Shown: positions 15,650 through 52,221 of the stretch, one piece after another
Layout of the letters: every line of letters starts with the position of its first letter
Position numbering within the stretch: position 1 is the stretch's first letter
From: Candidatus Latescibacterota bacterium
GTDB lineage: Bacteria; Latescibacterota; UBA2968; UBA8231
Direction of reading: 5' to 3'
DNA length: 64,000 bases
Assembly: GCA_965248265.1 (NCBI GenBank)
Contig: CBDFJF010000002.1
Span: 2,016,001 to 2,080,000 of the forward strand
Notes under the pieces: model-generated
The model's database searches: none
Seen by the model: only the letters and a program-made list of their open reading frames with translations
What the model was told of the DNA's origin: nothing
Position numbers and translations under genes: made by a program

Positions 15650-16387
15650 ATGGCACGAAATAGGTTCACTCCTTTTGTACTGGATCCGGTTGCATATCGA
15701 AATTCTTTGAGCGTCACAGATCGGGCGTTTCTGGACCTGATCGGTCATGTGGATGGACAGCGCATTCTGGATATGGGATGTGGTAACGGCTTCCTCTCAA
15801 TTTATATGGCCCGGCAGGGAGCTTGTGTCACTGCAATCGATTCGGCTGTACAGGCCGTTCACAACACCAAGCAAATGGCCTGTGTGAATGGGTTGGATTC
15901 AGGATTGAAGGTGTGCCACATGGATGCTCGTACACTGGGTGACTTAGGCGGATCATATGACCTGGTTGTGGGACGTTTTATCCTCCATCATATCGAGCCT
16001 TTCCCCGCATTTGTCGATTTGTTATCCCGATTTTTAGGGGCTGGCAGGGGTGTTTTTTTGGAAAACAGCGCCCGCAATCCCATTTTGATGTTTTGCCGAT
16101 CTTATCTGGTGGGAAAGTTTGGGATTCCCAAACTTAGCAACGCGGAGGAGTTTCCTTTTGAACAGCGGGAAATTGAAATACTCCAACGAAGATTTCGTTC
16201 TGTCAAGGTCTATTCCCCCGAATTTCTATTTTTTAATTTAATGAGTACCTATTTCTCTCACCCCAATTGGTTTGGCCATGTTTTCAAGGGTTTGGACACA
16301 GGGCTGGCCAGGTGTTTTCCATTCCTCCGACAGTACAGTTATTGTCAGATCATTGAATTTCGCCATACTCTGGGTCAAAAAGCCTGA
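15650..16387 (+). CDS. Class I SAM-dependent methyltransferase
   Basis: RILDMGCGNG motif I, AID, YDLVVGRFILHH. Confidence 0.88.
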   Translation: MARNRFTPFVLDPVAYRNSLSVTDRAFLDLIGHVDGQRILDMGCGNGFLSIYMARQGACVTAIDSAVQAVHNTKQMACVNGLDSGLKVCHMDARTLGDLGGSYDLVVGRFILHHIEPFPAFVDLLSRFLGAGRGVFLENSARNPILMFCRSYLVGKFGIPKLSNAEEFPFEQREIEILQRRFRSVKVYSPEFLFFNLMSTYFSHPNWFGHVFKGLDTGLARCFPFLRQYSYCQIIEFRHTLGQKA

Positions 16388-29150: not shown

Positions 29151-29360
29151 CTGCAACGGTAGTAACGATGTGTACGTGGGGTTGAACACGAGAGAGGCTG
29201 CTCGCAGGTGACGGAGCAGCCTTCTCTTTTGTGGCATCCAACAAGCCAACACACCATTTTCGGAACCAGGTCCCGGTAACCTGTTGTGGCCAACTCAGCT
29301 ACAGGTCCGGAAAGTATGTGGCCATGGAGGCATCCTCTTAGCAGCAACAGGGAAGCACTG

Positions 29361-32300
29361 ATGGAAGAGAAACCAAAACGACCCAGCATCAACGGCCGGG
29401 GTGTGTGGCAACAGTTTACCATCCAAGACGGTCTTCCTGACATGAAGATCGAATGCATTTATGAGGACTCTCAGGGAATACTCTGGATAGGCACACACGA
29501 TCGAGGAGTAGTCCGCTATGACGGCAGAGAATTCCAGACCTTCACTCGTCAGGACGGACTGTCTGGTGATGGTGTATTCAGCGTCATTGAGGATGAGTCT
29601 GGTACGCTGTGGTTTGGGACCAATGGGGGAATAACGGCCATGGATGGTGGCGCCTTCGTCCAATTGGAAGGAACAGAAAGCCTAAGTTGCCTTTGGGGAG
29701 TTTGTGTCAGCGATGGTGCCATATGGTTCGGTTTGGAAAAAAAACCTGCGCAGTCGCCTGCGGTTTGCCGCGTATGGGGCAAACAGAGAGAAGTGCTGTT
29801 TGCGGAAGGTGATCCACCAGATGCAGGTGGGAGTATTCACCGTACGGTGTCTGATGGTATGGGTAGTGTACTGTGTGCCGGACAGGGCGTTTTCCTATCC
29901 AGCGATGAAAGTATGTCTTCGATCTCGAGTCTAGATTCGCTGATACATGTAAACGATATGCTTCTTCGATCTGATGGTTCAATTTGGATATCTGAATACC
30001 GGGGAATTTTCAAGTATGAACCCTCGGAGGATCGAATTGAGTGTATCTCGTCAAACAGAAACGTAGAGGCGTTGGCTGAGGACGCTGACGGTGTTGTATG
30101 GCTTTGTGGAAACAATGGAAAGTTGTGGTCTTGGGATCCGGTAGCCGGTTTTGAGGAGAAGCTAGACCTCGATGCTGTGTTTTGGCGTGGAATGATATTT
30201 GACCATCGAGGTCGGCTGTGGATCGGATCTTACGGATCGGGTCTGGTCTACTATGAGGAAACGAGGATACAGGTTTTCGGTTGCGCGCAAGGATTGCCCA
30301 ATGAACGAATCAGGAATGTTGCGTTGGACAAAGATAAGCGAGTATGGGTCGGCACTGAGTCAGGTTTGGCGGTCGTTGGCAATTCTTCGATTGAACCTGT
30401 TGGTGCACAGCTTCTCGCAGAAGAAAAGATTTCAAGCTTGGAAGTGGATCGGTCGGGCCGATTGTGGATTGGCACACGAGCCGGACACGTGATTACATAT
30501 TTCAACGGTGAGTTTACAGAGCAGGAAGCGGTCCGGGAGTTCGAGCGATACAGTATTAGCAAGTTGGCGGTAGACTCACTTAATCGAGTTTGGTTCGCTT
30601 CTCGCCATGGCCTCGGATTCGGCTACTACGATGACGGCATAGTGCAACACTATCCCGCTACACAAGAGGAGAACTATCCCACATGGGTCGGTGCAATGGC
30701 TGCGGACAAAGATGGACACATATGGATCGGTTCCGCCGAACCAAGTAAATGGAGCGGGCTATGTCGCGCAGGCGATTCAGAGCTAACCAGATATCCCTTG
30801 GCAGAGGCATTGCCTATTTCATCTCTGTGTGTTGAGGATCAAGTGGTCTGGATCGGTTCAAGCGAAGGGTTGTTTTCGTTGCACAGACGGACAGGAAGTT
30901 TATGCAAGACAACACAACGGCTTTCGTGCCAGATCGTAACCGCCATTACTGTAGCCAGCAACGGAACCCTGTGGATAGGTACGGAGGGGGGTGGCGTAAA
31001 TCATTACGATGGGACCACTGTTCAAGCCATACAGATCCCAGGCGATGTCCAGCGCAACGTTATCAACGACATCTGCGAAGATGTCTTTGGTGATATGTGG
31101 ATTGCTACCAATTGCGGGTTGGTGAGGTTCCAGAGGACGAGGATGCCTCCATCCGCCGAGATTCTAAGTGTTCTTGGGCAAGATGAGCAAAACGGTTCCG
31201 AAGAGGTCCGGGCGTACAAGGCGGGGCGAGAGATCACCATCAGGTTTTCTGGATACAGCCCTGACGAGCACACCTCCCACCTAACATTTCTGTACCGCCT
31301 TGTCGGCTGCGAGGACGATTGGAATCAAACGGATGAGACAAGTGTAAGCTACGCTGGCCTAAAGCCTGGCTCATATCGCTTCGATCTTCGAGCTGTTGAC
31401 CGTGACTTGAACCGGTCAGAGATCGCTTGTGTCGAGTTGAGTATTGCACCGACGCCCATGGATGTTGCCTTGAATGAGGCACTGTCAGGAGACAGCGGAG
31501 GCCAGGAGTTTATTGGTCACAGTGCATGCATTCTGGAGGTCATGGACAGGATCAAAGACGTGGCGCCGAGCGACCTAACGGTCTCGATTTTCGGGGAGAC
31601 TGGCACTGGGAAGGGGTTGATCGCCAGAGCCGTACACGCGCTGAGCGATAGAAAATTAGGGCCTTTCGTTTCCGTGAACTGTGGCGCGTTACCCGAAGGC
31701 CTTGTAGACAGCCAACTATTCGGTCATGAACGTGGGGCATTCACCGGTGCGTCTGCTCGGAGAGTGGGCAAGTTCGAGCTAGCCGACAGCGGTAGTATTT
31801 TCTTGGACGAAATCGGAGATCTGCCAATTGAATCCCAGGCAAGGTTGTTGCATGTCCTTCAAGAGTTGTCTATCGAGCGAGTTGGCGGTAGTCGGCAGAT
31901 TCCCGTTAGTGTGCGGGTTATAGCTGCAACCAACCGAGACTTGCCTCAAGCTGTTCAGGAAGGGTATTTCCGAGAGGACCTATTCTATAGGTTGAACGTT
32001 TTCGCCATCGAAATGCCACCCTTGCGAAGGCGTCGAGAAGACATAGGTGAGCTAGCAGAGTTTTTTGTAGCACGATTTGCGGAACATCTGAATCAACGGC
32101 CGCCCAAGATCTCCAGCGACGCGATGAAGATCCTAACTGGATATGAGTGGCCTGGCAACGTGCGCGAGCTGGAGCACATGATGCAACGAGCTGTCTTGTT
32201 GGCGAAAAGTGACGTCATCCAGTTAGCCCATCTTCCTAGTGTTGCTGAAGAACAGATTGCAGATCAAGGTAGCCTCGTGATACAGCCTTGGGCTGCCCAC

Positions 32301-32450
32301 GAGCGTCGCTATCTTGAGCAAGTTCTCGACCAAACAGAAGGTGTTATTTATGGTGACAACGGGGCGGCAGCCCTATTGGAAATCCATCCGAATACACTGA
32401 GAAGCAGGCTAAACAAGCTTGGCATAAAGGTAAGAAAGAAAAAAGAGTAA
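29361..32450 (+). CDS. Sigma-54 enhancer-binding protein 1: two-component-regulator beta-propellers, Y_Y_Y, AAA+, HTH (no TM)
   Basis: Repeated D..G.LW.GT blades; YRLVGCEDDW...YAGLKPGSYRF; GETGTGKG, FGHERGAFTGA, FLDEIG, YEWPGNVREL; HTH GAAALLEIHPNTLRSRL; start chosen by alignment to the paralog. Confidence 0.92.
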   Translation: MEEKPKRPSINGRGVWQQFTIQDGLPDMKIECIYEDSQGILWIGTHDRGVVRYDGREFQTFTRQDGLSGDGVFSVIEDESGTLWFGTNGGITAMDGGAFVQLEGTESLSCLWGVCVSDGAIWFGLEKKPAQSPAVCRVWGKQREVLFAEGDPPDAGGSIHRTVSDGMGSVLCAGQGVFLSSDESMSSISSLDSLIHVNDMLLRSDGSIWISEYRGIFKYEPSEDRIECISSNRNVEALAEDADGVVWLCGNNGKLWSWDPVAGFEEKLDLDAVFWRGMIFDHRGRLWIGSYGSGLVYYEETRIQVFGCAQGLPNERIRNVALDKDKRVWVGTESGLAVVGNSSIEPVGAQLLAEEKISSLEVDRSGRLWIGTRAGHVITYFNGEFTEQEAVREFERYSISKLAVDSLNRVWFASRHGLGFGYYDDGIVQHYPATQEENYPTWVGAMAADKDGHIWIGSAEPSKWSGLCRAGDSELTRYPLAEALPISSLCVEDQVVWIGSSEGLFSLHRRTGSLCKTTQRLSCQIVTAITVASNGTLWIGTEGGGVNHYDGTTVQAIQIPGDVQRNVINDICEDVFGDMWIATNCGLVRFQRTRMPPSAEILSVLGQDEQNGSEEVRAYKAGREITIRFSGYSPDEHTSHLTFLYRLVGCEDDWNQTDETSVSYAGLKPGSYRFDLRAVDRDLNRSEIACVELSIAPTPMDVALNEALSGDSGGQEFIGHSACILEVMDRIKDVAPSDLTVSIFGETGTGKGLIARAVHALSDRKLGPFVSVNCGALPEGLVDSQLFGHERGAFTGASARRVGKFELADSGSIFLDEIGDLPIESQARLLHVLQELSIERVGGSRQIPVSVRVIAATNRDLPQAVQEGYFREDLFYRLNVFAIEMPPLRRRREDIGELAEFFVARFAEHLNQRPPKISSDAMKILTGYEWPGNVRELEHMMQRAVLLAKSDVIQLAHLPSVAEEQIADQGSLVIQPWAAHERRYLEQVLDQTEGVIYGDNGAAALLEIHPNTLRSRLNKLGIKVRKKKE

Positions 32451-32469
32451 CACCTCGTGTTGACCTGGG

Positions 32470-32600
32470 TCACGGCATATGGTGATTCACGAGGTTGAGC
32501 ACGAAATATCGTGCACACTCTTCCGCGAGTGTATCCTGTAGATAGTTCAGTAGGTTGCTAAAAGAATTTGTATAGTAAGGTCACGACATTTCGTGACCTT
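32470..32600 (+). promoter_or_regulatory. Three palindromic enhancer (UAS) sites, CACGA-N4-TCGTG type
   Basis: TCACGG-CATA-TGGTGA 32470-32485; GCACGA-AATA-TCGTGC 32499-32514; AAGGTCACGA-CATT-TCGTGACCTT 32577-32600. Confidence 0.75.
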
Positions 32601-32693
32601 CGCTCTGGTCCGGTTCATACCCATTTTGTCAGTTTCATGGCAACCGTTTGTTTTGGCTCATCTTGCGATGATTCTCCTCACAATCAGCTTGGT

Positions 32694-32709
32694 TGGCCCA
32701 ATCCTTGCA
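32694..32709 (+). promoter_or_regulatory. Sigma-54 (-24/-12) promoter
   Basis: TGGCCCAATCCTTGCA, exact GG-N10-GC spacing, 37 bp before the AraC regulator ATG. Confidence 0.8.
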
Positions 32710-32746
32710 ATATCGGCAACCAAACCAATGAGAAAGTGAGGATTCG

Positions 32747-33466
32747 ATGCGCCCCAAAATCATCATTGCAGATAGTGAACTAGATTACTTGCCAAACGTC
32801 AGGACTGGAATCCTGGCTGGCTGCCACTTCGTCCGTGCAGCAAGCGAAGACGATGTGATGACTGAAATGCATGCTGCACCCGGCGCATGTCTTCTCTTGA
32901 TCGATTCTGGCAGAACCGAAGACAGTTCTTCAAAGCTGCTACGGAGAATCAAGGAGAAAGGGCGTCGCAGCAGCAAGGTGGTTTGCACTGCCGAGAATCC
33001 AACTGTTGAGCTTGTTATCGCCGCTTTTAAGGACGGCGCTTGTGATTTCATCCCAAAGCCAGCTTCACACAGCGAGGTGCTTTCCACCGTTCAAGCTCTG
33101 GTCCATTCCGCCGAAAGAATGCCGAGTTACTGGGCGCGTCGACTCGACGCATATCTGATTGACAACTTGTCCAATCCCGATCTCAACCTCGCATTCTTGC
33201 AAACACACTTCGCCGTGTCGAAGAGTTATCTTTCAAAGCTCTTCAGGTCTGAGATCGGCGTGCCATTTCGAGACCGGTTGATGAGATTCCGAATGCTAAA
33301 AGCAGCTAAGCTTATCGAAACTACGGACCATCCGATCTACCTGGTTTCATACCATTGTGGATTCCGAAGTCAATGTCGGCTTACTGAGGCATTTACGCGT
33401 TATCATGGACTCGGGCCTCGAAGATATCGTGAGGCACACAGATCTCAATTTTCTCGTTCAAACTAG
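32747..33466 (+). CDS. Response regulator with REC and AraC HTH domains
   Basis: IIIADS...LLLID...GACDFIPKP receiver; SKSYLSKLF...RMLKAAKL...CGF...F.R.HG..P..YR AraC. Confidence 0.88.
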   Translation: MRPKIIIADSELDYLPNVRTGILAGCHFVRAASEDDVMTEMHAAPGACLLLIDSGRTEDSSSKLLRRIKEKGRRSSKVVCTAENPTVELVIAAFKDGACDFIPKPASHSEVLSTVQALVHSAERMPSYWARRLDAYLIDNLSNPDLNLAFLQTHFAVSKSYLSKLFRSEIGVPFRDRLMRFRMLKAAKLIETTDHPIYLVSYHCGFRSQCRLTEAFTRYHGLGPRRYREAHRSQFSRSN

Positions 33467-33581
33467 AAGCACCCCAAGGGGATCTCTCTCTGTAATTGGT
33501 TGCTCGACGTTTCCTCCCGTCGTACCTTTGCGGAATGACCGCATTTGCAAGGCCAATTCGCATTAGGCAGACGACGAATAC

Positions 33582-36500
33582 ATGATGAAACCCGAGGCTC
33601 GTCCATACCACAGGGGGATATGGGAGCACTTTACAGTGCAGGACGGCCTTCCAGACATGAAGGTCGAATGCGTGTACGAGGACTCAAGGGGGGTGCTCTG
33701 GGTGGGAACGCACAACCGCGGATTGGTCCGGTACGATGGGGATGACTTTCAAGCGTTTACTACCAGAGAGGGTCTTTCTGGAGACGGAGTTTACAGCATA
33801 ATTGAGGATGAATCCGGAACGCTATGGATTGCAACCGATCGCGGTTTATCAACTTTCGACCAGGAGAATTTCCACAATGTCGATGTTGGTGTTGACTGTG
33901 GTTTCCTCTGGGGTGTTGACAGGGATGCTAAAGGCAATTTGTGGTTCGGGCTGCAACGCCGGCCAGGTTTACCTCCTGCGGTCTGCCGGGTAACAGAAAA
34001 TGATTGCAACATTGTTGTTGTGGACGAGACCGACGAGGCATCAGGGACAAGCATCCATTGCATCAGGACCAATCCAGAGGGCAATGTTTGGGTCGGCGGA
34101 CAGTCGGGATTGTATGAAAGCGAGTTTGATGGACGTTTTTCCCCTCTGAAGCAAGAATGGGACGTTTACGTCGTCGGCGACATACTCCCGACGGGGTCAA
34201 AGGGTATGTTGGTTGCAGCATACAACGGTTTGTGGCGGTTGGGGGATGGGGCTGCTGAGCATTTGCTTGCTGAAAGCGATAGTGGTCCAGTTTCATTAGC
34301 CCACGTTGATGATGATGTCTTCATGGTTTGTACGTATGACGGGCGCTTGCTTCGCGTTCTTGGGGACGAGGTGCAGCTGATTCACCATCTGAATTCCGTC
34401 CACACGGGAGGATTTGTATTTGATAGTGAGGGAAGATTGTGGATAGGTACGTATGGGTTGGGTCTGTACTGCTATGACGAAACCAGGCTTCAGATAACGC
34501 GGATGGACAGTGTTTCACCCAGCGCCTCAGTTACCTGCTTGAACACCGACTCCCACGGCGAGTTGGTTCTGGGCACTCGCCAAGGGGTGTTTGCTCTTGG
34601 TGATGCTGGTTTTTCGGCTCTCCGTAAATCTGAAACGCTTTCGAATGCCGAGATTACAGGTGTGCTGTTCGATAGTTCAGACCAATTGTGGTTGGGTACG
34701 CGCAATGGTTGGATTTACAGCCGCATTCAAGGGACGCTCAACCAGCATGAACTCGATCCGGCATTCCTCGGTTACAGTATTGATGCATTGGTAGAAGACA
34801 ACCATGGGCGAATATGGTATGGATCTCGGAGTGGGCAGGGGTTCGGCTGCATAGCTGATGGGAAGTCGGAGTTTTTTCCACCTGGTGGGAATGCCAATTA
34901 CCCATCTTGGGTGCGGGCAATTGCACGAGATCGATTGGGTGGGATGTGGCTCGGTTCTGCTTCTCCAGGGGATTGGGATGGGATTTCCAGGTACCGGGAA
35001 GGGGAGTTTGAGCAGATAAACGGGTTTTCAGGAGCAGCAATTCTGTCTCTTATGGAAGATCGCGACGGACGTATGTGGGTGGGCACGAACGAAGGCTTGA
35101 CCTGCATAGATGAAGACTATCTCATGACCTTCACGCAGAGTGACGGACTCTCATGTGAGATTGTAACGTCAATATTTCAAGCACGGAATGGGGTGTTGTG
35201 GATTGGCACTGATGGGGGCGGAATCAGCTGCTACGATGGTCAGGTGTTTCAGGCTTGGCGCGTGCCTCACGATCCAGCATGTAACGTCATTCACGATATT
35301 GCTGAAGGGCGAGATGGTGTAATCTGGTTTGCATCTGAAGGTGGTCTTATAAGGTACGAAGCAGGCCAGACGAAACCCACTGTTGATGTCGTTGAAGTCA
35401 TCGCAGATATAGCGTACCCCGTGCCTTCAGAGGTGCAGTTCCCGACGACGGTTGGAAGGATGACATTGCGATTCCGTGGAGTTAGTTCTTGCGACAGGGC
35501 GGAACACCTTGTTTACAGATATCAACTTCATGGTTACGAGAATGACTGGCAGCAAACAAAGAGTGGTCAGGTTGAGTACTATAAGTTGCAGCCTGGAGAG
35601 TACGTCTTCTACGTCCAGGCGGTTGACAGAGATTTGAACTACTCCAAACGCGCTGAGGTGCAGGTCGTAGTAACTGAAGACCCTCGTATCGAGGCTCTGA
35701 ATGATGCTCTTCGTGCAGAGGGTGCCAACGGTGAGTTCATTGGGAATAGTACGGCGCTAAGTGAGGTCAAAAGGCAAATTCGGGAGGTTGCTTGGACCGA
35801 TTTGACAGTGTTAGTGCTTGGAGAGACCGGCACCGGCAAGGGATTAGCGGCACGCGCGATTCATGATTCCAGTGAGCGCAACGAGCAACCGTTTATTCAC
35901 GTCAACTGCGGGGCTTTGCAGCACGGGCTCGTCGATAGCGAGTTGTTTGGGCACGAACGAGGAGCTTTCACTGGAGCTATCACTAGAAAGCTAGGGAAGT
36001 TCGAGTTGGCAGACAAAGGGACCATTTTTCTCGACGAAATTGGTGACCTCCCACTTGAGTCTCAAACGAGGTTGTTGCGGGTCTTGCAGGATCGCTGCAT
36101 TGAACGGGTAGGAGGCACCCAAACACTATCAATTGATGTAAGGGTGATCGCTGCTACAAATCGAGATCTCGTTGGTGCTGTGCGCGGAGAGAAGTATCGT
36201 GCTGATCTCTATTATCGGCTGAACGTGTTTCCTATTCGAATACCTGCACTCCGGGAGCGACAAGAGGATACGCCTCAGTTGGCTGGGCATTTCGTGAAAC
36301 GTTTCGCTGCCCATTTGAACCAAACCGCTCCGCGCATCAGTGATGCTGCCATGCAAATGTTGATGTCATACAGCTGGCCCGGGAACGTGCGCGAACTAGA
36401 GCATGTTGTGCAGCGAGCAGTGATTCTGGCGAAGGAGCAACAAATTGAACCTGTTCATATCGGCATTGGTCCTCCAGCGACGATAGTTCAAAGTGAGGAT

Positions 36501-36690
36501 CTGGCAGAGTTCCTCCCTCTACGGGAGCACGAAAAGCGCTATCTGGCGAAGGTGCTTGAGTTTACGGGGGGGGGTAATCCATGGGAAGCGCGGTGCTGCG
36601 CAATTGCTGAATATCAAACCCACAACCCTGCGGAGTCGACTTGAGAAATTGGGATTGATGAAAACCAAGCGCGTAGCGAAAACCAACTAA
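33582..36690 (+). CDS. Sigma-54 enhancer-binding protein 2 (paralog of EBP1), frameshifted in a G9 tract just before the HTH
   Basis: Same architecture with intact GAFTGA; removing one G from 36566-36574 gives FTGGVIHGKRGAAQLLNIKPTTLRSRLEKLGL* (stop 36690), matching the EBP1 HTH. Confidence 0.9.
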
Positions 36691-36723
36691 CATAGTGGCA
36701 ACCCATCAGAGCCGAAGCATTTG

Positions 36724-36850
36724 TTACGATATGTCGTAAAATCAACATTCGTTACTATATATCGTAAGTTATTACGTAACATGTTGACATGTATTCAATT
36801 ACACTAGAAAAAGGGATGTATGCCATAGAGTAATTTACGACATGTCGTAG
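36724..36850 (+). promoter_or_regulatory. Three palindromic enhancer (UAS) sites, TACGA-N4-TCGTA type
   Basis: TTACGA-TATG-TCGTAA 36724-36739; TTACTA-TATA-TCGTAA 36752-36767; TTACGA-CATG-TCGTAG 36835-36850. Confidence 0.75.
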
Positions 36851-36912
36851 TTCCCAGGGGGGCATAATACTACATCTCGCCTTGGTTAATATCGTATAAC
36901 TCATTGTTAATA

Positions 36913-36946
36913 AGTCGTTTGAGGTATTCCTCAGGCGACTTTTTTT
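36913..36946 (+). terminator. Intrinsic terminator directly upstream of the sigma-54 site
   Basis: AGTCGTTTGAGG-TATT-CCTCAGGCGACT followed by T6. Confidence 0.7.
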
Positions 36947-36949
36947 GTT

Positions 36950-36965
36950 TGGCATACATCTTGAT
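36950..36965 (+). promoter_or_regulatory. Sigma-54 promoter (variant -12, TTGA) of the peptide operon
   Basis: TGGCATACATCTTGAT; 115 bp from the third UAS versus 113 bp at the paralogous promoter. Confidence 0.65.
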
Positions 36966-37032
36966 ATAACACAATTAGACGAAGCGACATTCGCTAAGCG
37001 GTTAAGGCAGGTCCATCTCTTAGGAGGAAATC

Positions 37033-37251
37033 ATGAGTTTCAGATCGATAGCTGACTGGTGTGCGAAAGGTATGGCAGTAGTTGGTGCAGTTGCTTTGGC
37101 GGGCAGCGTTGGCGCAGAAGCATCCTCACATGAGGCGGCGTTGAGCCAAGACTCCTCGCTCTATGTGCCTCAAGCAGATGTCTCAGTTGGGTACGTGGTA
37201 GCAGGTGATTTCGATTCTGATGGCGGCGGGAATCCGCCTAAGCCTGAGTAA
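37033..37251 (+). CDS. 72-aa secreted precursor-like peptide, copy 1
   Basis: AGGAGG RBS; Sec-like signal ending AEA (residue 30); C-terminus YVVAGDFDSDGGGNPPKPE. Confidence 0.9.
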   Translation: MSFRSIADWCAKGMAVVGAVALAGSVGAEASSHEAALSQDSSLYVPQADVSVGYVVAGDFDSDGGGNPPKPE

Positions 37252-37359
37252 CACTGAATCTTCTCGAATCTCACCGTGTTAGATGTTCTGCGCCTGCAGG
37301 TCGGGCGAAAACTGTTACGATTTTCGCGGACAGGTGGGTCCATCTCTTAGGAGGAAATC

Positions 37360-37578
37360 ATGAGTTTCAGATCGATAGCTGACTGGTGTGCGAAGGGTTT
37401 GGCAGTAGTTGGTGCAGTCGCTTTGGCAGGTAGCGTTGGGGCAGAAGCATCCTCACATGAGGCGGCGTTGAGCCAAGACTCCTCGCTCTATGTGCCTCAA
37501 GCAGATGTCTCGGTTGGGTACGTGGTAGCAGGTGATTTCGATTCCGATGGCGGCGGGAATCCGCCTAAGCCTGAGTAA
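37360..37578 (+). CDS. 72-aa secreted precursor-like peptide, copy 2
   Basis: Identical to copy 1 except M14L; 7 of 8 nucleotide differences are synonymous. Confidence 0.9.
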   Translation: MSFRSIADWCAKGLAVVGAVALAGSVGAEASSHEAALSQDSSLYVPQADVSVGYVVAGDFDSDGGGNPPKPE

Positions 37579-37984
37579 CCGACGGCTTAATCTTCTTCGG
37601 TATCTACCGTGTTAGATGCTCTGCGCCAGCAGGTTGGGCGAAAACTGCTAAGATGGGGCAGGCAGTTGCATCAATATTCGACGGCGCTTGATCTGCGGCG
37701 CGAGCATCTTACGGTCCTTGTCTTCTTCCACGGATACTCTCTCGCTCACACAATCAGGCCTCTCGTAGTCGCTCGCTCGTTGCGCGACCGAGGTTATCAG
37801 GTCGTTCTGGCCGGACGTGGACCTCATGCGGTTCGCATTCGGGAGGAAGGCTTTCGTGTGTACGATGTGGAAACGCTCCCGCAGGACAGGATGGATCAGT
37901 TCGTCGCTCGTGGCGACTACATGTACTATGACTATGAATGGGTGGATAGATGCGTTTGATACTCCCCCGGAAAAATGGACACCG

Positions 37985-38854
37985 TCAAGCAGCAAGTTTG
38001 GTTGAATGCTGCTCGAATGCTGCGGGTGTTGCGTAATCCAGGGTGGAATGACTCCTTTCTCGATTGTAAAAAATCTCGATGTAGTCGAACAGGCTGCGAT
38101 ACGCGGCCCGGTAGTTGAGCCAGTGTTCGTGGTAGGTCAACTCGGTCTTGAGCAGATGGAAGAAGGACTCAGCCACGGCGTTATCCCAGCAGTCGCCCTT
38201 ACGGCTCATACTCTGCACAAAGCCGTGTTTGCTGACCCAGTTAGTGAACGCGGTGCAGGCGTATTGAACGCCGCGATCGGAATGGATGATCAGACCCCTC
38301 GGCGGACGACGTTGAGCTACAGCCCGCTGCAGCGCGACCAGCGCCACGCGGTGATCCAGTGCCGAGCTCAACGCCCAACCCACCACGCGCCTGGAGTACA
38401 GGTCGATGACGACGACCAAATACAACCAGCCGCGACCGACGCTGAGGTAGGTCAGGTCGCTGACCCACACTTGATTGGGGCGCTGTGCGGTGAAATCGCG
38501 CTGCAAACGGTTCGGCGCCACCGCAAATCGATGTTGCGAGTTGGTCGTCACCTTGAAACGGCGTCGCACAATCGAACGCAGACCCAACACACGCATGCGC
38601 CGTGCAACGCGATTCTCGCCCACCTGCCAGCCTCCGTCTATCAGGGCGCGGGTGATCTTTGGGCTACCGGAGCGCCGCTTGCTGGCTTCAAACAACTTGT
38701 TGATCTCGACATCCAGTCGCCGAGTCTGCTCAGCTCGAGGACTGATCGGGCGCTGCTGCCAGGCGTAGAAACCGCTACGCGACACCCGCAGCACGCGACA
38801 CAACATAGTGACCGGGTACATCGCCTTCTCCACCTCGATGAAGCGATACCTCAT
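37985..38854 (-). CDS. IS3 transposase OrfB (DDE/rve)
   Basis: WVSDLTY, IDLYSRRVVGW, HSDRGVQY, SRKGDCWDNAVAESFF. Confidence 0.96.
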   Translation of the reverse strand: MRYRFIEVEKAMYPVTMLCRVLRVSRSGFYAWQQRPISPRAEQTRRLDVEINKLFEASKRRSGSPKITRALIDGGWQVGENRVARRMRVLGLRSIVRRRFKVTTNSQHRFAVAPNRLQRDFTAQRPNQVWVSDLTYLSVGRGWLYLVVVIDLYSRRVVGWALSSALDHRVALVALQRAVAQRRPPRGLIIHSDRGVQYACTAFTNWVSKHGFVQSMSRKGDCWDNAVAESFFHLLKTELTYHEHWLNYRAAYRSLFDYIEIFYNRERSHSTLDYATPAAFEQHSTKLAA

Positions 38855-39138
38855 CTGGACTCGTTGGCGAAGAAGGCCGCCGCCTTTTTTAGGATATCTC
38901 GTTCCTGGGACACCCGCGCCAGCTCACGCCGCAAACGGCGGACCTCCTCGTCGTGATCACCTAAATGGCCGGTACCTGGGAAGGCTTCATCTCCTTGGAC
39001 CTTCAATTCTCTCTTCCAACGACTGATAATGCCTGCACTTAAACCCAATCGTTGCTCGACCCCTCGGGCCGATACCCCTTCTTCTGCGGCCAGGCGAATG
39101 GCCTCGAGCTTAAACTCACGATCATACTTGCGTGACAT
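38851..39138 (-). CDS. IS3 transposase OrfA (HTH) with an A6G -1 frameshift site
   Basis: MSRKYDREFKLEAIRL...ERDILKKAAAFFA; AAAAAAG at 38884-38890 on the minus strand; GGAGG RBS. Confidence 0.93.
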   Translation of the reverse strand: MSRKYDREFKLEAIRLAAEEGVSARGVEQRLGLSAGIISRWKRELKVQGDEAFPGTGHLGDHDEEVRRLRRELARVSQERDILKKAAAFFANESR

Positions 39139-41410
39139 AAGAACACCTCCTGCCAGAAATTTAACTTGGCGCTTCGAGGTGTCCACTCTCTTGGGGAAGT
39201 ATCAGTTCAGTCCGAGCGCCTGCTGCTCAAAATGCTCAAGCCCCAGTTCGTGATTCATGACATGAAGCCGACGGCGGCGATTAGCGCTCGCCTCGAGGGG
39301 GTCGATGACGCGAAGATAACTCAGGCTTACAACCAGCCGGGTTACTCAGAGGTCATCCATCTCCCAGACTGGTTTTCGACTGAATCTGGACCTTTCGACG
39401 AATACCTCGCTGATCATGCCTGTGAGGCGAGCGCACAGCAATCCTTCTGCATGCTGGCCGACATCCCTGAGTTCCACCCCAACGACGAGGAAGCGGGTGG
39501 ATACCACTATGTCGGTCCCTTACTCGATCAGCCCGCCGAACCCGAGCATGTAGAGTTACTTGATGCCGATTGGGACCAGTCGCTGCCTCTTGTCTATCTG
39601 ACGTGCGGAAGCAGCGGACGATCGCCCGACTATCTGGATGATTTCATCGCGGCGGTGAAAGACCGTCCCTTTCGGGTCCTGATCACGACGGCGGGTCGGT
39701 GGACTGATTCCAATGAGGGGGCGGCGTTGCCGCGCAATGTGCGCGTTACCGATTTCGTCCCGGGGGAGTGGGTTCTGAGGCGAGCACAGATGATGATCGG
39801 GGTCGTCGGTATCGGCTCGATCTACCAGGCTCTCGGAAATGGTGTTCCCGTAGCCGGCGCGCCGGAGCATCTCGATCAAGAGTACCACCTGAATCGTGTC
39901 GAAGCGCTGGGTTTGGGTGCCAAACTGGACCGTCGGGATCTCGGCACAACGACCCTCATCGATGCGATCGAATCCATGCTCGCGAATCTCAAGGGCTTTC
40001 AAAAGCGCTGTGCCGTTTTCTCGAGCGCCCTCAAGGGATTCGATGGCGCCAGTCGGGTTGCCGACCTGGTGGACGCTCATTTTATATCCCGGAACAAGGC
40101 CTATAGAGTTGACCAGTCCGAAATGGTGACGGCCGAGGAGTTCCTTCACTACCTGAATCACACAACCCCGCCGGAACTGTCACGGGAAGAGGTGAGCCGA
40201 ATTCTGCAGAATGGGTTGCGCAGCGGGATTCCACATTGCCGCCAGAGCAAGCGTATCTATTTCGACCATTTGGACAGCTGGAATTGGCTGTATGACAACG
40301 AGCCGGCCTTTTTCGAGGCCGATTATCGGGCCTCAGAGAACAAGCGGCGCCAGTTTTTCGCCAGCAACAACGGCCACGTGCGCTGCCTCGAGGCTTGGCA
40401 ACGATTCCAGGTGACTTACCAATACAGGATCTTCCCTCGACCGCCGGCCGAGTACAGGCCGCTGGCGCCGGGTCAGCGACTCAAGCTGTTCATCCCCTTC
40501 CCGATTCACAAACCCGGACATCAGATCGACGTTGAGCTCAAGTCGTGCTCATCCGAGGCCATGGTCTCCTCTTTCGTGCCTCAACTCGGATTCATGTATG
40601 GCTTCGAGAGCGAGGTGCACTCCGACTCCAGGCCGCTGGAGTTCAGTTACAGCTGTGAACTGAGTGTTCGTGAGCAGGGTACGGGCGAAGGAGAACGCGA
40701 GCTCACCGAAGCGGAGCGTCACGGCAATCTGGAAGTCGACCCCGAGATCGCGCGGCTTCCGGAAGTGATCCAGTTCAGGCAACGGTTGGCCCCGGCGGAT
40801 GATAGCCGAGCTGCCATGGCGCGCGCCATCTATGATGAACTGGCTCGGTCGAGGCGCTTTCGCAAAACGAAGGACCGCTCTCACAACATGCTTTACTGCA
40901 CCGCCTCGATTCTGAGCGGCAAGAGTGGCCACTGCGTGACGATGTCACGCGCCTACATGGCTCTGTGCCGCCTCGAGGGCATACCGGTCCGTGAGATCTC
41001 GGGTGCACTTGCAGGCTATCCGTCGGGAAATGGCGGGTTCCAGATGAAGACCTATTGCGAGCCGGTCTTCGGACATACCTGGGTTGAGATCTTTCTGGAG
41101 GGGGAAGGGTGGATGCCTGTGGAGTTTCATTCCATCGTCATCGGTGAGCAGGCTCTCACCAAGGGCAACGTAACCGACGACGTTACCAGGGCCCTGGTGG
41201 CTGAGAACTCAAAGCGGTATCACGACTACTACTTCGGCAATCTGGACAATCACCGCCTGGTGTGCTCGAACTCCGTCAAGCAGATCCCACAGGCCATGGT
41301 CGAAGACCCCACGTTGCCCCTCGACCACGATGATCATTGGTCCCCGGCGCACGATCTGCGCTATGACTGCTCGCTGCAGTTTACGAAGGTGTGAGCGCGA
41401 GAGGACAGGC

Positions 41411-42505
41411 ATGGTCGATATCAGTGTAATCATCCCGACATACAATCAAATGGAGCGGCTGCGTCTGGTGCTTTGCGGCCTCGAGAATCAGCGTCTGGAG
41501 TCGTCACGCTATGAGGTCATCGTCGTCGACGATGGCTGCACGGACGGTACACCGGAGATGGTAGCACAGCGCATGGCGGATGGGGATTGCGGGAATCTCA
41601 GCCTGATTTCTGCCAATCCGAAAAAGGGTCGCAGTGCGGCGCGCAATCGGGGGCTTGAGGAGGCCACGGGTGATGTGGTCGTATTCCTCGACGGCGACGC
41701 TCTTCCCGCACCGGATCATCTGGAGCGGTTCGCACAGGCGATTGAGGACCACGGTCCCCAATGCCTGCTGTGCGGCATGCAGTACAGCTTGCCCGAGCTC
41801 GAGTTTTTCAAGGATCCGCAGAGTGGGGCGCTATATCCGGATGTGCCGGTAGCCAGCGTCGTCAAGGATTACGTGGGCCTGCGTCGCCAGGAGCTCATCG
41901 TCACGGAGGAGATGATCATCCGCGATTTCGACGCCATCCGGTCAAGGGCCAAGGAGGGCGGCTACCCCTTCGAAGAATCGAAACGTCGTCAGGAGGAGGC
42001 ACGCGCGCTGCTGTACTCGCGACCCGATGCCGAGAGCACCTGGTTGGCTTTCATTCCGCACAACGGCGCCGGACCCAGACAGCTACTGTTGGAGGCGGGC
42101 GGATTCGACGAGGAGATCCCGTTCAGCGAGGGGTGGGAACTCGCCTATCGGATGCGGCGGGAGCACGGTTGTGACATTCGCTGGGTCCAGGCGGACACCT
42201 TCCATCTGTACCACTACCACCCGTTCCTGGACCCTGAAGGGGGAAAGCGCGAAGGGCAAATCCGCTATCGCGCCATCGAATACATGGTTGCCAAGCACGA
42301 TGATGAGCGCATCCGTCTTCTCTACTTCTGGTACGCCCACCTGTGGCCTGATTTCTACATCCCGCAGGAGGCCGTCGTTCAGGATCTCGTTCATTTCGAC
42401 CAACTGTACACCGATCTGTGCGCCGATACCTGGCGTCAGCACCAGGTGATTCTCGAGCACCATCCATCCCAATTTCTGAAACAAGCGATTGAGGCTGTGA
42501 TATGA
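41411..42505 (+). CDS. GT2 (GT-A) glycosyltransferase
   Basis: ISVIIPTYN, VIVVDDG, GRSAARNRG, FLDGD, GGFDE, HLYH; start ATG 41411 after GAGGA. Confidence 0.9.
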   Translation: MVDISVIIPTYNQMERLRLVLCGLENQRLESSRYEVIVVDDGCTDGTPEMVAQRMADGDCGNLSLISANPKKGRSAARNRGLEEATGDVVVFLDGDALPAPDHLERFAQAIEDHGPQCLLCGMQYSLPELEFFKDPQSGALYPDVPVASVVKDYVGLRRQELIVTEEMIIRDFDAIRSRAKEGGYPFEESKRRQEEARALLYSRPDAESTWLAFIPHNGAGPRQLLLEAGGFDEEIPFSEGWELAYRMRREHGCDIRWVQADTFHLYHYHPFLDPEGGKREGQIRYRAIEYMVAKHDDERIRLLYFWYAHLWPDFYIPQEAVVQDLVHFDQLYTDLCADTWRQHQVILEHHPSQFLKQAIEAVI

Positions 42506-43728
42506 TCCAGACAAACGGTACTCTCAAGGAAAAACAGCTCATAGAGGCACTGGAGCTGCACGAAAAGGGGGATGACCGTCGCGGTCTGGCCCTCGACTGC
42601 TATCAGCTCGGCGTCATTCACCAGGACGGGGGCCGCCTGGAGAGCGCCGAGCGTCTGTTTCGGCGGGCCCTGGTGCTGTGCGAAGCGCTGCAGGACATCA
42701 GTGGCGCGGCGGCGGCGCATGCGCGCTTGGGTCTCTTGTTCGAGATCTACGGCGACACCGGCCAGGCGAGGTTCTTCCTGGAGGAGGCTTGCCGTATGCA
42801 CCAGGCCGCGGAGGACAGGTCCGGCCTGGCGAGCGACTACGGGTATCTCGGCTTTATCGACTTCATCGAGGGTGATCACGCGTCGGCGGAGGAGCGTCTG
42901 CGTGAGGCGTTGCGCATGAATGAGCAGCTGGGGAACGAGGCTCGCGCTGCCGAGGACATGGGGAACATCGGCAATGTCTACCTAGCCAAGGGTGATTTCG
43001 AGGAGGCGGAGACGATGTATCACAAAGCCCTGGCGCAATACGAGAAGCTCGGCGATCAAAAAGGAATGGGCAGTCTGTATCGGAGTCTCGGACGACTGTG
43101 GCTGGAGCGCGATGATCCCGAGCAGGCAAAGGTGTTTTTCGAGCTCGGTCTCGGGTTGCACACGCAAGTGGGCTGGGTGCTGGGAGAGGCGCTACAGCAT
43201 GATGGCATTGCCCTGGTGTACGAACGAACCGGTCTCGCTGATAAGGCGGAGGAGTGTTACCAGCGAAGTCTGGAACTGTTGCGCGAAACCGGGCATCGCA
43301 CCCAAATCGCTCGAGCGCAGACGCAGCTGGGTACTTTGCGCGCGACCCGTGGAGAGCTGGACGGAGCCTGTGATTCGTTCGAAGAGGCCCTCGAGCTTCA
43401 CGAGCAAATCGGGGATTACAGCGGCGTGGCGTACGCCTGCAGGCGACTCGGGACGATCTACTTGAATCCTGCCAACCCCGATCTCGAGCGCGCTGAGCAG
43501 ATGTACCAAAAGGCACTGGGGATTTATCGCGAGCAGGGGGACGAACGTGGCGAGGGAGCGGTTTTCTCCGGATTGGGAAATCTGGCAGCCCGTCGTGGCG
43601 ATGTCTCGCAAGCCATCGGTATGTGGAAGGTCGCATCAGAACGGTTCAAGAAACTTGGCATCGTCGATCAGGTAGAGAAGCTGGATATCGCCATGAAGCA
43701 GATCTGGTCGCGCGGCATGGTCGCGTAG
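42502..43728 (+). CDS. Stand-alone tetratricopeptide repeat protein
   Basis: Consecutive ~40-aa repeats (A..Y..LG..Y...GD...A...Y..AL) over the whole length; ATGA coupling to the GT2. Confidence 0.9.
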   Translation: MIQTNGTLKEKQLIEALELHEKGDDRRGLALDCYQLGVIHQDGGRLESAERLFRRALVLCEALQDISGAAAAHARLGLLFEIYGDTGQARFFLEEACRMHQAAEDRSGLASDYGYLGFIDFIEGDHASAEERLREALRMNEQLGNEARAAEDMGNIGNVYLAKGDFEEAETMYHKALAQYEKLGDQKGMGSLYRSLGRLWLERDDPEQAKVFFELGLGLHTQVGWVLGEALQHDGIALVYERTGLADKAEECYQRSLELLRETGHRTQIARAQTQLGTLRATRGELDGACDSFEEALELHEQIGDYSGVAYACRRLGTIYLNPANPDLERAEQMYQKALGIYREQGDERGEGAVFSGLGNLAARRGDVSQAIGMWKVASERFKKLGIVDQVEKLDIAMKQIWSRGMVA

Positions 43729-43743
43729 AAAGAAGAAACCATC

Positions 43744-45012
43744 GTGACCTATCAGGATTCTTCCGGAACAAGAGCCGTCGGATACCGTGAGGTGTTGCGT
43801 GTTGTCACGCGACTTATGCGGGATCAGATCTGGCGCATGGACCGTCCCGAGGACTGGCAACGTGCGCTCACAGCCCTGATAGACGCGTTGAAGGCGTTGC
43901 GTATTCCATTCGACAGTTGTGACCTGCACCATGTCGATTCGGCGAGTGAGGCTCCTGCCATTCCGCACCTGTTCTCGTGGAGAGACAATCGCTGGCGTCA
44001 AACGGTTGTGGGAGAGGACAGGGACACAATTTCACAGATATGGCGACGTGGAGAGCCCGACCATCGAACCGACGTCGCTGCCGTCGACGCGCACGACCAG
44101 GGCGACATTTTGAGGATGCGGCATGGCTATGCCATCCGCTCGGCACTCGACGTTCCATTCGCCAACGGAGTTCTGTCGCTCTACAGCAGCTCCGCAAACG
44201 CGTTCTCGGAACGCGATATCGAGATGGTTATCGAACTCGCCGAGGGCCTCGTTACCCTGTACAACCGTCTCGATGATCTCAAAGAGTTGGAGGCCAAGCA
44301 ACGGCAGGTAGAGCAGGCACAGCGACTCGAAATGGTGGGGCAGTTGGCAGCCGGCATGGCACACGAAATCAACAACTGTCTGTCCGTCATTCTGGGGCAG
44401 AGCGAGTTGCTGCTGCTGGACCAGCTCGATCCGGGCGTTCGCGAGAGTGTCCAGCTGATTTCCAAAGCCGCCGAGGGAACCAAGTACAGCTCGCGGCGAT
44501 TGTTGGATATGGCGCGAGGACAGGAGCCTGAGCGGGCGCCGATCGATCTGAACACCCTGGTCATGGAATCGGTCGAACTCGTGCGTCGGCAATTCAAGCG
44601 AGAGGAAATCGAGATAGTCGATGAACTCGGTGCGGGGCTACCGCTCGTCAACGGTGAGCCGACTCAACTGCAACAGATCGTGATCAATCTGCTGCAGAAC
44701 GGTCGGGACGCGCTCAGGGGCAGAAGGCGATCGGGGCTTATTCGAATTCGGACACGGCGACTCGACAACAGGGTGACGCTGTCGGTCGAGGATGACGGGC
44801 CCGGCGTTCCCGAGCGCATCCGTGATAGAATCTTTGAACCCTTCTTCAGTACCAAGGAGAAGGGCAAGGGGACTGGTCTCGGTTTGAGTATCTGTCAGAC
44901 CATAGCTCACAACCACAGTGGCTACTTAAGACTTGAATCCTCATCCCGGGGCACCTGCGTTGTCCTGGATCTGCCTATCGCAGACAAGGCAGCATTGCAG
45001 GCGTTCAACTGA
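43744..45012 (+). CDS. Cytoplasmic sensor histidine kinase (GAF-like, HisKA, HATPase)
   Basis: RSALDVP..GVLSL.S...NAFSERD GAF-like; [33 protein letters not shown]; no TM. Confidence 0.9.
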
Positions 45013-47469: not shown

Positions 47470-47473
47470 GCAG

Positions 47474-52105: not shown

Positions 52106-52221
52106 GGCGCAATCAAAACGCGAACGAAGACTGTCCTCGCTGTGCTCGGCCAGTCTTTTGGAGTTCGCTTCGCGAACTCCCGGGGTGAATTGGCTTGAAT
52201 AAGGTGCAATCAAAACGCGAA
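52099..52221 (+). repeat. 26-bp direct repeat of a gene start flanking a 71-bp hairpin-containing insert
   Basis: TGAATAAGG(C/T)GCAATCAAAACGCGAA at 52099 and 52196; GGAGTTCGC-TTC-GCGAACTCC at 52160-52180. Confidence 0.75.

Follow-up and report, generated by a model that had tools for sequence, protein, structure and literature searches.

Does a short peptide gene that heads an operon of glycosyltransferases encode their substrate? The question is raised by a 64,000-nucleotide stretch of contig CBDFJF010000002.1 of Candidatus Latescibacterota bacterium (the window; its genome, labelled G000, has 7.3 Mb). Positions 29361 to 45012 of the window carry genes for two sigma-54 enhancer-binding proteins (EBP1 and EBP2), a response regulator with a receiver and an AraC-type domain (REC-AraC), two copies of a small peptide, a GT1 glycosyltransferase fused to a transglutaminase-like (TG) domain (GT1::TG), a GT2 glycosyltransferase, a tetratricopeptide repeat (TPR) protein and a histidine kinase. 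We read this locus as a candidate glycosylated-peptide system, akin to those for peptides that are ribosomally synthesised and post-translationally modified (RiPPs), under a two-tier sigma-54 cascade, and we give this reading a probability of roughly 0.5. An earlier note on this DNA had listed these genes with their promoters and upstream activating sequences (UAS), and open reading frame (ORF) calls, Pfam and site scans recover every listed part on the + strand. Its description of the kinase as a GAF protein did not hold, since Pfam calls no GAF domain at the kinase N-terminus. In window coordinates, the parts are:

29286-32450 (likely start 29361), + strand: EBP1; Pfam Reg_prop, Y_Y_Y, Sigma54_activat, AAA_lid_14 and HTH_8 (HPNTLRSRL, a Fis-type helix-turn-helix, HTH)
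32470-32485, 32499-32514 and 32581-32596, upstream of AraC: three palindromes of the CACGA-N4-TCGTG type, candidate UAS for EBP1
32694-32709, + strand: sigma-54-type -24/-12 element TGGCCCAATCCTTGCA, 38 bp 5' of the AraC start; GG-N10-GC spacing confirmed
32747-33466, + strand: REC-AraC response regulator; Pfam HTH_18 (E 4e-16) and Response_reg (E 2e-4)
33582-36644, with the HTH in another frame to 36690, + strand: EBP2; domains as in EBP1, minus the HTH_8 match
36724-36739, 36752-36767 and 36835-36850: three TTACGA-N4-TCGTAA palindromes, candidate UAS for EBP2
36912-36941, + strand: intrinsic terminator, 13-pair stem with 6 GC; its T-run runs into promoter TGGCATACATCTTGA
36950-36964, + strand: sigma-54-type -24/-12 element TGGCATACATCTTGA, 69 bp 5' of peptide gene 1
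37033-37251, + strand: peptide gene 1, 72 aa; signal-peptide-like N-terminus to AEA, then an acidic 42 aa ending in GYVVAGDFDSDGGGNPPKPE
37273-37321, + strand: duplicated remnant of the GT1::TG 5' end, 90% identical to 37606-37654
37360-37578, + strand: peptide gene 2, 72 aa, differing from gene 1 at one residue (99% identical)
37609-37956, + strand: GT1::TG gene, 5' part, 116 codons; corresponds by homology to the N-terminal ends of unbroken orthologues (825-850 aa)
37957-39204, - strand: IS3-family insertion sequence (IS), 1248 bp; orfB 37985-38854, orfA ORF 38851-39186 (likely later start near 39140)
39208-41394, + strand: GT1::TG gene, 3' part, 728 codons; GT-B C-half, middle domain and transglutaminase-like core; Pfam EryCIII-like_C/UDPGT and Transglut_core
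41408-42505, + strand: GT2 (GT-A) glycosyltransferase by Pfam, with a family-specific C-terminal helical part
42502-43728, + strand: TPR-only protein, 408 aa; Pfam TPR_12 (E 7e-46); 4-base overlap of its start with the GT2 stop
43744-45012, + strand: soluble histidine kinase; Pfam HisKA and HATPase_c, N-terminal sensor part uncharacterised

The peptide gene and the enzyme genes occur together

The arrangement is real and is conserved far beyond chance. Searched with the C-terminal fragment of GT1::TG, 8 of 24 genomes of the same family gave matches at E at most 4e-144, and none that strong was found in 16 genomes from three other families. Of 168 genomes of the phylum, a profile of the C-terminal half located the enzyme in 33, every one a member of the window's own family: it is present in 32 of 75 same-family genomes besides the window's and in 0 of 92 genomes from 13 other families, with up to six copies per genome. 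Scanning one genome per GTDB species yielded 59 comparison loci (designated by L-numbers; several loci share one genome), nearly all labelled Candidatus Latescibacterota, with a few metagenome-assembled genomes (MAGs) carrying other labels. Below, clade A denotes the window's own clade of GT1::TG, and clade F comprises L064, L066 and L074.

GT2 follows GT1::TG in 55 of the 59 loci (in two of them after 4-5 kb) and TPR is present in 41. The full order of EBP, peptide, GT1::TG, GT2, TPR and histidine kinase is kept in L018, L019 and L021, and the cassette order recurs in L026-L028, L034, L036, L037 and L048/L053 and in the metagenome loci L110 and L112-L114, so that different genera are represented. 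Shorter versions are seen in L020 (EBP and GT1::TG, then the contig end), in L023-L025 (part of GT1::TG, then GT2, TPR and kinase) and in L022 (GT1::TG and GT2 only). The histidine kinase is kept 3' of TPR in clade-A loci, several of which have a GFO/IDH/MocA oxidoreductase and an SKI-like kinase 3' of it. The earlier note had looked to a conserved gene order and to a small peptide gene beside the enzymes, with a similar C-terminus, as the features on which its proposal would stand, and in clade A both are borne out: the order is maintained across genera, and an ORF of 72-89 aa with a shared C-terminal motif lies directly before GT1::TG in every clade-A locus with upstream DNA assembled.

These clade-A ORFs have a basic N-terminus, a hydrophobic stretch up to an AxA-like site and an acidic C-terminal part with the motif ...[SGA]Y[VL]x[IVL]G...D...PPxPE; signal peptides were judged by eye from the basic n-region, the hydrophobic stretch and AxA. 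Identity between them falls to 18-35% (alignment A2), yet position, signal-like N-terminus and C-terminal motif are kept. In most clade-A loci the peptide gene lies 15-35 bp upstream of GT1::TG behind one sigma-54-type promoter, preceded by three TACGA-type palindromes, a hairpin and a TGGCA[CT]-N5-TTG[AT] element, and the window has no terminator between the peptide gene and GT1::TG. The window peptide has no Cys after the predicted cleavage site.

A search with the single peptide (tblastn) returned no relatives; these were found by position and then by profile. Across the 59 loci the peptide hidden Markov model (HMM) matches nine loci, and the window twice, and nothing else there. In 41 related genomes the profile matches seven, all with a clade-A GT1::TG whose upstream DNA is assembled; from each match to the enzyme gene the distance is no more than a few hundred bases, and those genomes have none elsewhere. 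The layout by which RiPP clusters are recognised, a short precursor-like ORF beside tailoring enzymes in one operon, is thus present, and peptide and enzyme co-occur in seven of seven genomes. An ESM Atlas search with the peptide gave a best score of 0.77 and no lead. The sequence GDFDSDG and the FG-GAP proteins that flank the sister clades had made an FG-GAP blade a candidate identity for the peptide, which we rejected: the peptide HMM matches only the peptides themselves among 5938 ORFs, and no FG-GAP match comes up in Pfam even at E up to 10.

Sister clades carry other small ORFs beside the enzymes

Profiles of four unrelated small-ORF families match 44 of the 59 loci (9, 17, 15 and 3 loci, three of the 15 being long ORFs). 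Two of these families combine a conserved signal-like leader with a hypervariable Cys-rich core. The 60-70-aa family has the conserved leader MK[RK]x[IF]...LLPxQAxA ahead of its hypervariable Cys-rich core, and adjoins ABC-2 permeases, DUF1573 proteins and an unnamed secreted 300-aa family. Its members occur in L030-L035, L041, L050-L059, L063, L065, L069 and L077, often more than one per locus, and several carry their own TGGCAC-N5-TTGCA element. In the 110-120-aa family, a conserved N-region and a hydrophobic stretch precede a Cys-rich tail; such ORFs are seen in L038-L045, L061, L071, L073, L081 and L082, where they adjoin two thioredoxin-like genes, FG-GAP/FlgD_ig proteins and DUF4159. The leader of the 90-aa family ends in ...DIKGG and is of the double-glycine type. 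This family belongs to clade F, where the order is GT1::TG, a GT2::TPR fusion, a standalone membrane-anchored Peptidase_C39, the 90-aa ORF, Rce1/CPBP and Yip1 (e.g. L074:8070-13354). Bacteriocin loci are typically marked by C39 peptidases, double-glycine leaders and CPBP/Abi proteins, and together with the GT2::TPR fusion this context points to a polypeptide substrate.

Mapped onto a quick maximum-likelihood IQ-TREE tree of GT1::TG (43 of the 59 loci, full-length and non-identical), the family type of the small ORF changes 11 times, against a mean of 24.4 in shuffled labels and with 0 of 200 shuffles as low; because related rows share labels, this result describes clustering and not co-evolution.

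Two glycosyltransferases, a transglutaminase-like domain and a TPR protein

Removal of the IS joins 116 and 728 codons into an enzyme of 844 residues, as the earlier note had reconstructed it. The GT1 half is a GT-B enzyme of the macrolide or natural-product type, with sequence matches in the PDB to YjiC, OleD and CalG. An AlphaFold2 (AF2) model of the L027 orthologue (predicted local distance difference test score, pLDDT, 88.7; predicted template modelling score 0.84) has CalG2, UGT109A1, GtfA and OleD as its top Foldseek matches; this whole-model search returned GT-B matches only and is therefore silent on the TG half. The C-terminal half comprises a family-specific middle domain (SWNWLY...) and a Transglut_core domain, found in 28 of 28 members. 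A profile search with this half aligns the TG Cys and His with the catalytic residues of TgpA (6g49, E 1.2e-4), and 43 of 43 homologues keep the Cys, the His and a Glu without exception, the Glu standing at the position of the Asp of the triad.

GT2 is a GT-A enzyme (AF2 model pLDDT 91.3) whose best Foldseek matches are K4CP, AvpGT, RmlT and TarP/S; ppGalNAcT-2 stands at rank 47 and no peptide glycosyltransferase is singled out. Over its whole 408 aa the TPR protein is matched in Pfam by TPR families only, with no HTH or other effector domain. In L064, L066 and L074, GT2 and TPR form one fusion protein of 856-868 aa, which suggests that the TPR part serves as a substrate adaptor of the glycosyltransferase rather than as a pheromone receptor. 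Complex prediction for TPR (alignment A3) with the mature peptide (residues 31-72 of A2) scored 0.01 against a mark of 0.32, a value that argues neither for nor against binding.

Distant relatives of the enzymes lie in non-ribosomal clusters

With the E cut-off set to 1e-30, a profile search of 1.84 billion representatives returned 101 proteins, and with 1e-10 it returned 575; in these a larger set of 670-770-aa proteins stands beside the 820-850-aa GT1::TG form. Ten proteins were scanned. Three are GT2::TG fusions and one is a GT2::TG::GT1 triple fusion (1204 aa); one has a GT4-type domain ahead of the profile-matched module (no TG core by Pfam) and one a methyltransferase-like domain. Over 307 residues, the window GT2 shows 29% identity with the GT2 half of one fusion (P0040), and the window TG part is 29% identical to the other half. 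These fusion orders and identities indicate that GT1, TG and GT2 form one toolkit whose parts work together.

Full-length GT2::TG genes in metagenome loci adjoin genes for FAAL-ACP-C-A-T non-ribosomal peptide synthetases (NRPS) in 8 of 14 cases and a separate EryCIII-like GT1 in 7 of 14; a DegT aminotransferase, a GMC oxidoreductase or a major facilitator superfamily (MFS) transporter also occur, and no conserved small ORF was seen in these NRPS-linked loci. The clusters, on metagenome contigs L095-L105 and L111, probably specify a glycosylated lipo-amino-acid or lipopeptide pathway. By contrast, tblastn at 1e-5 found no homologues of the NRPS, FAAL, DegT or GMC genes in the 59 loci or the window.

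A proposed two-tier sigma-54 cascade

Both EBPs match Sigma54_activat at E 1e-66, and both translations contain the GAFTGA motif. Neither has a hydrophobic segment at its N-terminus or between the propeller and the AAA+ domain, as read from the translations, so that the Reg_prop/Y_Y_Y sensors are cytoplasmic. REC-AraC has a candidate acid-pocket Asp (IIIADSE) and a candidate phospho-acceptor Asp (LLLIDSG), both read by eye, and its likely partner is the soluble kinase that closes the operon. The genome encodes rpoN at G000:C1:559941-560414.

The palindromic UAS lie 115-226 bp 5' of a promoter of the GG-N10-GC type. Allowing up to two mismatches, the TTACGA-N4-TCGTAA pattern has 6 matches in the window against 1.03 expected, a number reached by 0 of 100 shuffles. 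Promoter TGGCCCAATCCTTGCA ahead of AraC fits GG-N10-GC. The -12 element of the peptide promoter TGGCATACATCTTGA is TTGA and not TTGC (GA at -12), and this TTGA/TTGT form recurs among relatives; the motif has two matches in the window and is weak evidence by itself, because 12 of 100 shuffles give at least two. The hairpin at 36912-36941 is the best terminator-like hairpin of the region, and an equivalent hairpin with T-run and TGGCA is found in L026, L034 and L078. TGGCA[CT]-N5-TTG elements stand 17-99 bp 5' of the peptide-frame match in six relatives. On the operon strand there are 24 such motifs in the 712 kb of the 59 loci (a raw count without shuffled baseline), 11-13 of them just 5' of small ORFs from three families.

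Two types of site go with two types of activator. EBP1-type proteins (window, L026, L028) end in HPNTLRSR[LM], and between their genes and AraC lie CACGA...TCGTG palindromes and a -24/-12 element; EBP1 orthologues stand upstream of AraC in L026, L028 and L048/L053, and the CACGA...TCGTG palindrome type is also found 5' of AraC in L026, L028 and L048. EBP2-type proteins end in KPTTLRSRL (NPTT in L078), then TACGA...TCGTA palindromes, and TACGA-type palindromes lie 3' of every EBP2-type gene in L026, L027, L028, L036, L037, L048 and L078. L048 is intermediate, with a KPST HTH and mixed sites, and where a locus has just one EBP it is of the EBP2 type. This co-variation of palindrome and HTH types supports a pair of activators, with two site types, that are connected in series, and with it the two-tier cascade that the earlier note had proposed; the pairing of each EBP with its sites, judged by adjacency, is putative. 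A different arrangement is seen in L054-L057, L063 and L077, where the cassette is preceded by a CBM9 protein, a dCache-HAMP-PAS histidine kinase and a REC-type (NtrC-like) sigma-54 activator, not by a propeller-type EBP.

A working model and its rivals

According to our model, EBP1 would bind the CACGA-type palindromes and switch on REC-AraC and EBP2 from the -24/-12 promoter, and EBP2 would in turn bind the TACGA-type palindromes and switch on the peptide operon, with the soluble kinase and REC-AraC as a possible second input. The TPR protein may present the nascent peptide to GT2 and GT1, which would add sugars in the cytoplasm, while the TG-fold domain could catalyse thiol-dependent acyl transfer, a cross-link or a cleavage. 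The modified peptide would then exit via Sec. Clade F has a separate C39 peptidase, and the TG domain therefore probably does something other than leader removal. A broader proposal, which we hold tentatively and would not bet on, is that one Latescibacterota family has a new class of ribosomal natural product, in which at least five unrelated precursor families (with Sec-type and double-glycine leaders) are tailored by the GT1/TG-fold/GT2 toolkit with a TPR adaptor, the TG-fold installing a cross-link or acyl transfer new to RiPPs, and the whole gated by sigma-54 activators with cytoplasmic propeller sensors.

Several observations weigh against the peptide as substrate. The closest solved relatives of GT1 (CalG, OleD, YjiC, GtfA/B/D) act on small molecules or non-ribosomal scaffolds, and those of GT2 (K4CP, RmlT, TarP/S) on polysaccharides, teichoic acids or lipid-linked sugars; in sequence SunS resembles GT2 marginally (E 0.49-0.74, across the shared GT-A core), and the Foldseek matches listed do not include it. 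The clade-A peptide is variable in its N-part and conserved at its C-terminus, the reverse of the usual leader/core pattern. Fifteen of the 59 loci have no small-ORF family match. Six of these are cut at or inside GT1::TG, and in the eight with enough flank a crude signal-peptide heuristic gave no convincing candidate (L084, a fragment, lay outside the scan). The enzymes are cytoplasmic and the peptide looks Sec-exported, so that modification must precede export. Such cytoplasmic modification before export is known for some proteins. Sister clades have ABC-2 exporters and an outer-membrane efflux protein, which would also fit export of a glycolipid or glycan. The main counter-evidence comes from the NRPS neighbours of 8 of the 14 full-length GT2::TG loci, where the acceptor is presumably non-ribosomal. 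These neighbours, taken with TG-fold enzymes that act on carrier-bound substrates, make it probable that the ancestral or an alternative substrate of the toolkit is non-ribosomal.

Much of this is also what one would expect if GT1::TG, GT2 and TPR built a non-ribosomal glycoconjugate (a glycolipid, a small molecule or an envelope glycan) and the small peptides were co-regulated companions such as a bacteriocin, an adhesin or a structural partner. The resemblance of GT1 and GT2 to small-molecule and polymer glycosyltransferases favours it, as do the GT2::TG and GT1 relatives inside FAAL/NRPS clusters with a sugar aminotransferase and an oxidoreductase, the ABC-2 exporters and the efflux protein of the sister clades, and the GFO/IDH/MocA oxidoreductase and SKI-like kinase that follow the histidine kinase in several clade-A loci. 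The TG-fold enzymes CtaJ and AdmF transfer carrier-bound acyl groups in thiotemplated pathways, according to the part of the source available to us (PMC7898593). However, neither the 59 Latescibacterota loci nor the window has an NRPS, FAAL or carrier-protein gene, the peptide gene heads the operon and strictly co-occurs with the enzymes, and the GT2::TPR fusion with its C39/double-glycine/CPBP context points to a polypeptide; we regard this alternative as the main rival, doubtful though worth keeping in view. If the substrate is a polypeptide, it might instead be one of the larger secreted proteins of these loci (FG-GAP/FlgD_ig, DUF1573 or the unnamed 300-aa family), the cassette being a general cytoplasmic O-glycosylation system with a TPR adaptor and the small peptides one client or unrelated. 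TPR-assisted protein glycosyltransferases exist, as the part of the FlmG report available to us describes (PMC7591256), and sister clades are rich in secreted FG-GAP/FlgD_ig, DUF1573, thioredoxin-like and Pfam-less proteins. Yet the larger secreted families vary by clade whereas the small ORF is what recurs, and the sole gene of the clade-A operon that is neither enzyme nor regulator is the peptide, which renders this explanation unlikely.

The earlier note had also raised the idea that the TPR protein senses the exported peptide, which is unlikely. In such an RRNPP-like quorum loop the peptide would be exported, processed, re-imported and bound by TPR (or by the kinase or an EBP propeller), with feedback on REC-AraC and the EBPs and the glycosyltransferases acting only as decorators. 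Compatible with it are a Sec-like pro-peptide encoded near a TPR-only protein that is cytoplasmic and similar in size to Rap, the presence of a kinase and a REC regulator in the locus, and a conserved C-terminal ...PxPE that could serve as a recognition tag. But the TPR protein lacks an HTH or other effector domain, travels with the pair of glycosyltransferases in clades that have no kinase and no EBP, and in one clade forms a fusion with GT2; the locus has no oligopeptide permease, and RRNPP systems are known from Firmicutes. The loop as a whole is thus decidedly improbable. Least probable, and very much so, is that the small ORFs have no functional link to the enzymes and lie beside them through shared ancestry of close relatives. 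All loci come from one bacterial family, and kinship therefore inflates the apparent conservation; against this stand the retention of position, signal-like N-terminus and C-terminal motif at 18-35% identity, the dedicated UAS, terminator and -24/-12 architecture, and the unrelated peptide families that fill an equivalent role in sister clades. A glycosylated peptide accordingly remains our preferred reading of the locus, at the even odds given above.

The window copy is damaged

The GT1::TG frame stops at 37957 and resumes at 39208, and the 1248 bp between are an IS3-family element with the features of that family: orfA (HTH_Tnp_1) and orfB (rve DDE) on the minus strand, inverted ends TGATAC... 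(TG...CA) and a flanking 3-bp target duplication, GTT, at 37954-37956 and 39205-39207. Six full-length copies of 1248 bp, 100% identical, are present in the genome (on C1 and C2), which indicates that the element is active in the lineage and the insertion recent. EBP2 carries a frameshift near 36570, in a G-run (~36567-36577) just before the DNA-binding helix; three-frame translations show its HTH, LLNIKPTTLRSRLEKLGL (KPTTLRSRL), to be readable only in another frame, ending at 36690. Since the IS splits GT1::TG and EBP2 has lost its DNA-binding helix, the window copy is most likely off and the system in this genome probably inactive.

Contigs from three public runs of one sample agree with the window across 36000-37039 (0 differences, no indel), so the EBP2 frameshift may be real and not an assembly error. 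Other contigs enter the IS ends from both flanks and no empty-site joint is listed, although none extends 31 letters into the IS, the length required for either junction to be counted as bridged, and they cannot show that an empty-site allele is absent. These contigs possibly come from the source sample of the assembly and are thus not independent proof. The peptide duplication is a tandem unit of 327-333 bp that also copies the first ~46 nt of GT1::TG, with blocks 96% (37332-37579 vs 37005-37252) and 90% identical. The public-run contigs break at this repeat; pieces match each copy, and the tandem arrangement is not confirmed by them.

G+C content is 0.50-0.52 across EBP1, AraC, EBP2 and the peptide genes (30001-38000) versus 0.58-0.62 in the enzymes and most of the window, and the regulator/peptide half and the enzyme half may have different histories; another low-G+C stretch (0.506) lies well outside the cassette, at 14001-16000. 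Just 5' of EBP1 is a gene for an MFS transporter (27936-29150, + strand; Pfam MFS_1, E 6e-46) whose membership in the system is uncertain. A 46% identical MFS gene lies two genes 5' of the EBP in the relative L018, and none was seen in the other loci. On the 3' side (45304-54897) are genes for a DUF6785/DUF6784 membrane protein of 721 aa, a 1543-aa PA/M28/FtsX protein and a 900-aa membrane protein without Pfam match, none of which neighbours the cassette in relatives.

Comparison with known systems

Glycocins (sublancin, with SunA/SunS, glycocin F, pallidocin and enterocin F4-9) are glycosylated bacteriocin RiPPs, as described in the parts of the sources available to us (PMC12457901, PMC6405829, PMC8620827). 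They share with the window a small secreted peptide gene beside a GT2-family glycosyltransferase, the glycocin peptide being modified in the cytoplasm before export, and share with the sister clades Cys-rich cores, thioredoxin-like proteins, a C39 peptidase, a double-glycine leader and a CPBP protein. They differ in that the window peptide has a Sec-type signal (ending in AEA), no double-glycine leader and no Cys in the mature part, in that the window operon lacks a C39 or ABC gene but has a TPR protein and an extra GT1::TG-fold enzyme, and in that the window GT2 resembles SunS at most marginally in sequence and stands under sigma-54 control in Latescibacterota.

For the coupling of TPR and glycosyltransferase the nearest parallel is FlmG of Caulobacter, a fusion of the two in which the TPR domain binds the flagellin substrate for cytoplasmic O-glycosylation before export (PMC7591256, the part available to us). 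The modules are fused likewise in L064, L066 and L074 and are separate genes in the window. FlmG has a GT-B domain and acts on flagellins, whereas the window has a GT-A GT2, an obligatory second enzyme (GT1::TG) and a 40-aa candidate substrate. GmaR and OGT are further TPR-assisted cytoplasmic O-glycosyltransferases. RRNPP systems (Rap-Phr, NprR, PlcR) resemble the window in having a Sec-type pro-peptide gene near a cytoplasmic TPR protein and two-component regulators, and the peptide genes here are about 5 kb 5' of the TPR gene in the same operon; unlike in RRNPP systems, the window TPR has no effector domain, Opp is lacking and TPR travels with a glycosyltransferase.

The regulatory half matches NtrC-type EBP cascades in its GAFTGA AAA+ activators, palindromic UAS, rpoN and an EBP gene placed behind the target promoter of another EBP, and departs from them in the cytoplasmic Reg_prop/Y_Y_Y propeller sensor and in the TTGA/TTGT -12 form of the peptide promoter in clade A. 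In Bacteroides, Reg_prop/Y_Y_Y is the periplasmic glycan sensor of hybrid two-component systems. Lasso-peptide B proteins are transglutaminase-fold leader peptidases and resemble GT1::TG in their transglutaminase-fold Cys protease domain and their context of peptide maturation; unlike lasso systems, the cassette has no lasso cyclase or RiPP recognition element.

The earlier note knew of no described class with this combination. As far as the published text available to us goes, that stands: it contains no description of the enzyme combination or of the Latescibacterota cassette (supplementary tables of biosynthetic gene clusters from Latescibacterota MAGs, e.g. PMC12993501, were outside the scope). 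The claim needs qualifying in that the same GT2/TG/GT1 domain set occurs in NRPS-linked clusters. If the peptides are substrates, the locus would represent a new glycosylated-peptide (RiPP-like) class in a phylum without cultured members, unusual in its combination of GT1::TG-fold, GT2 and TPR, its Sec-type leaders and its dedicated sigma-54 enhancer control. Should the product be a glycolipid, the system would still be an uncharacterised trait of the envelope or of secretion, specific to the phylum, present in multiple copies and clear in its regulatory design. The 59 genome loci and a few further metagenome loci of this type provide a comparative set with several intact operons.

A further comparison is with the NRPS-linked GT2::TG and GT1 clusters (L095-L105), whose three catalytic modules are homologous to those of the window in other fusion orders. 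There they accompany FAAL-ACP-C-A-T, DegT and GMC genes, whereas the Latescibacterota loci are without these and have small ORFs and TPR instead. With the same three-module toolkit on both sides, the window system would, if its peptides are substrates, link ribosomal and non-ribosomal peptide chemistry.

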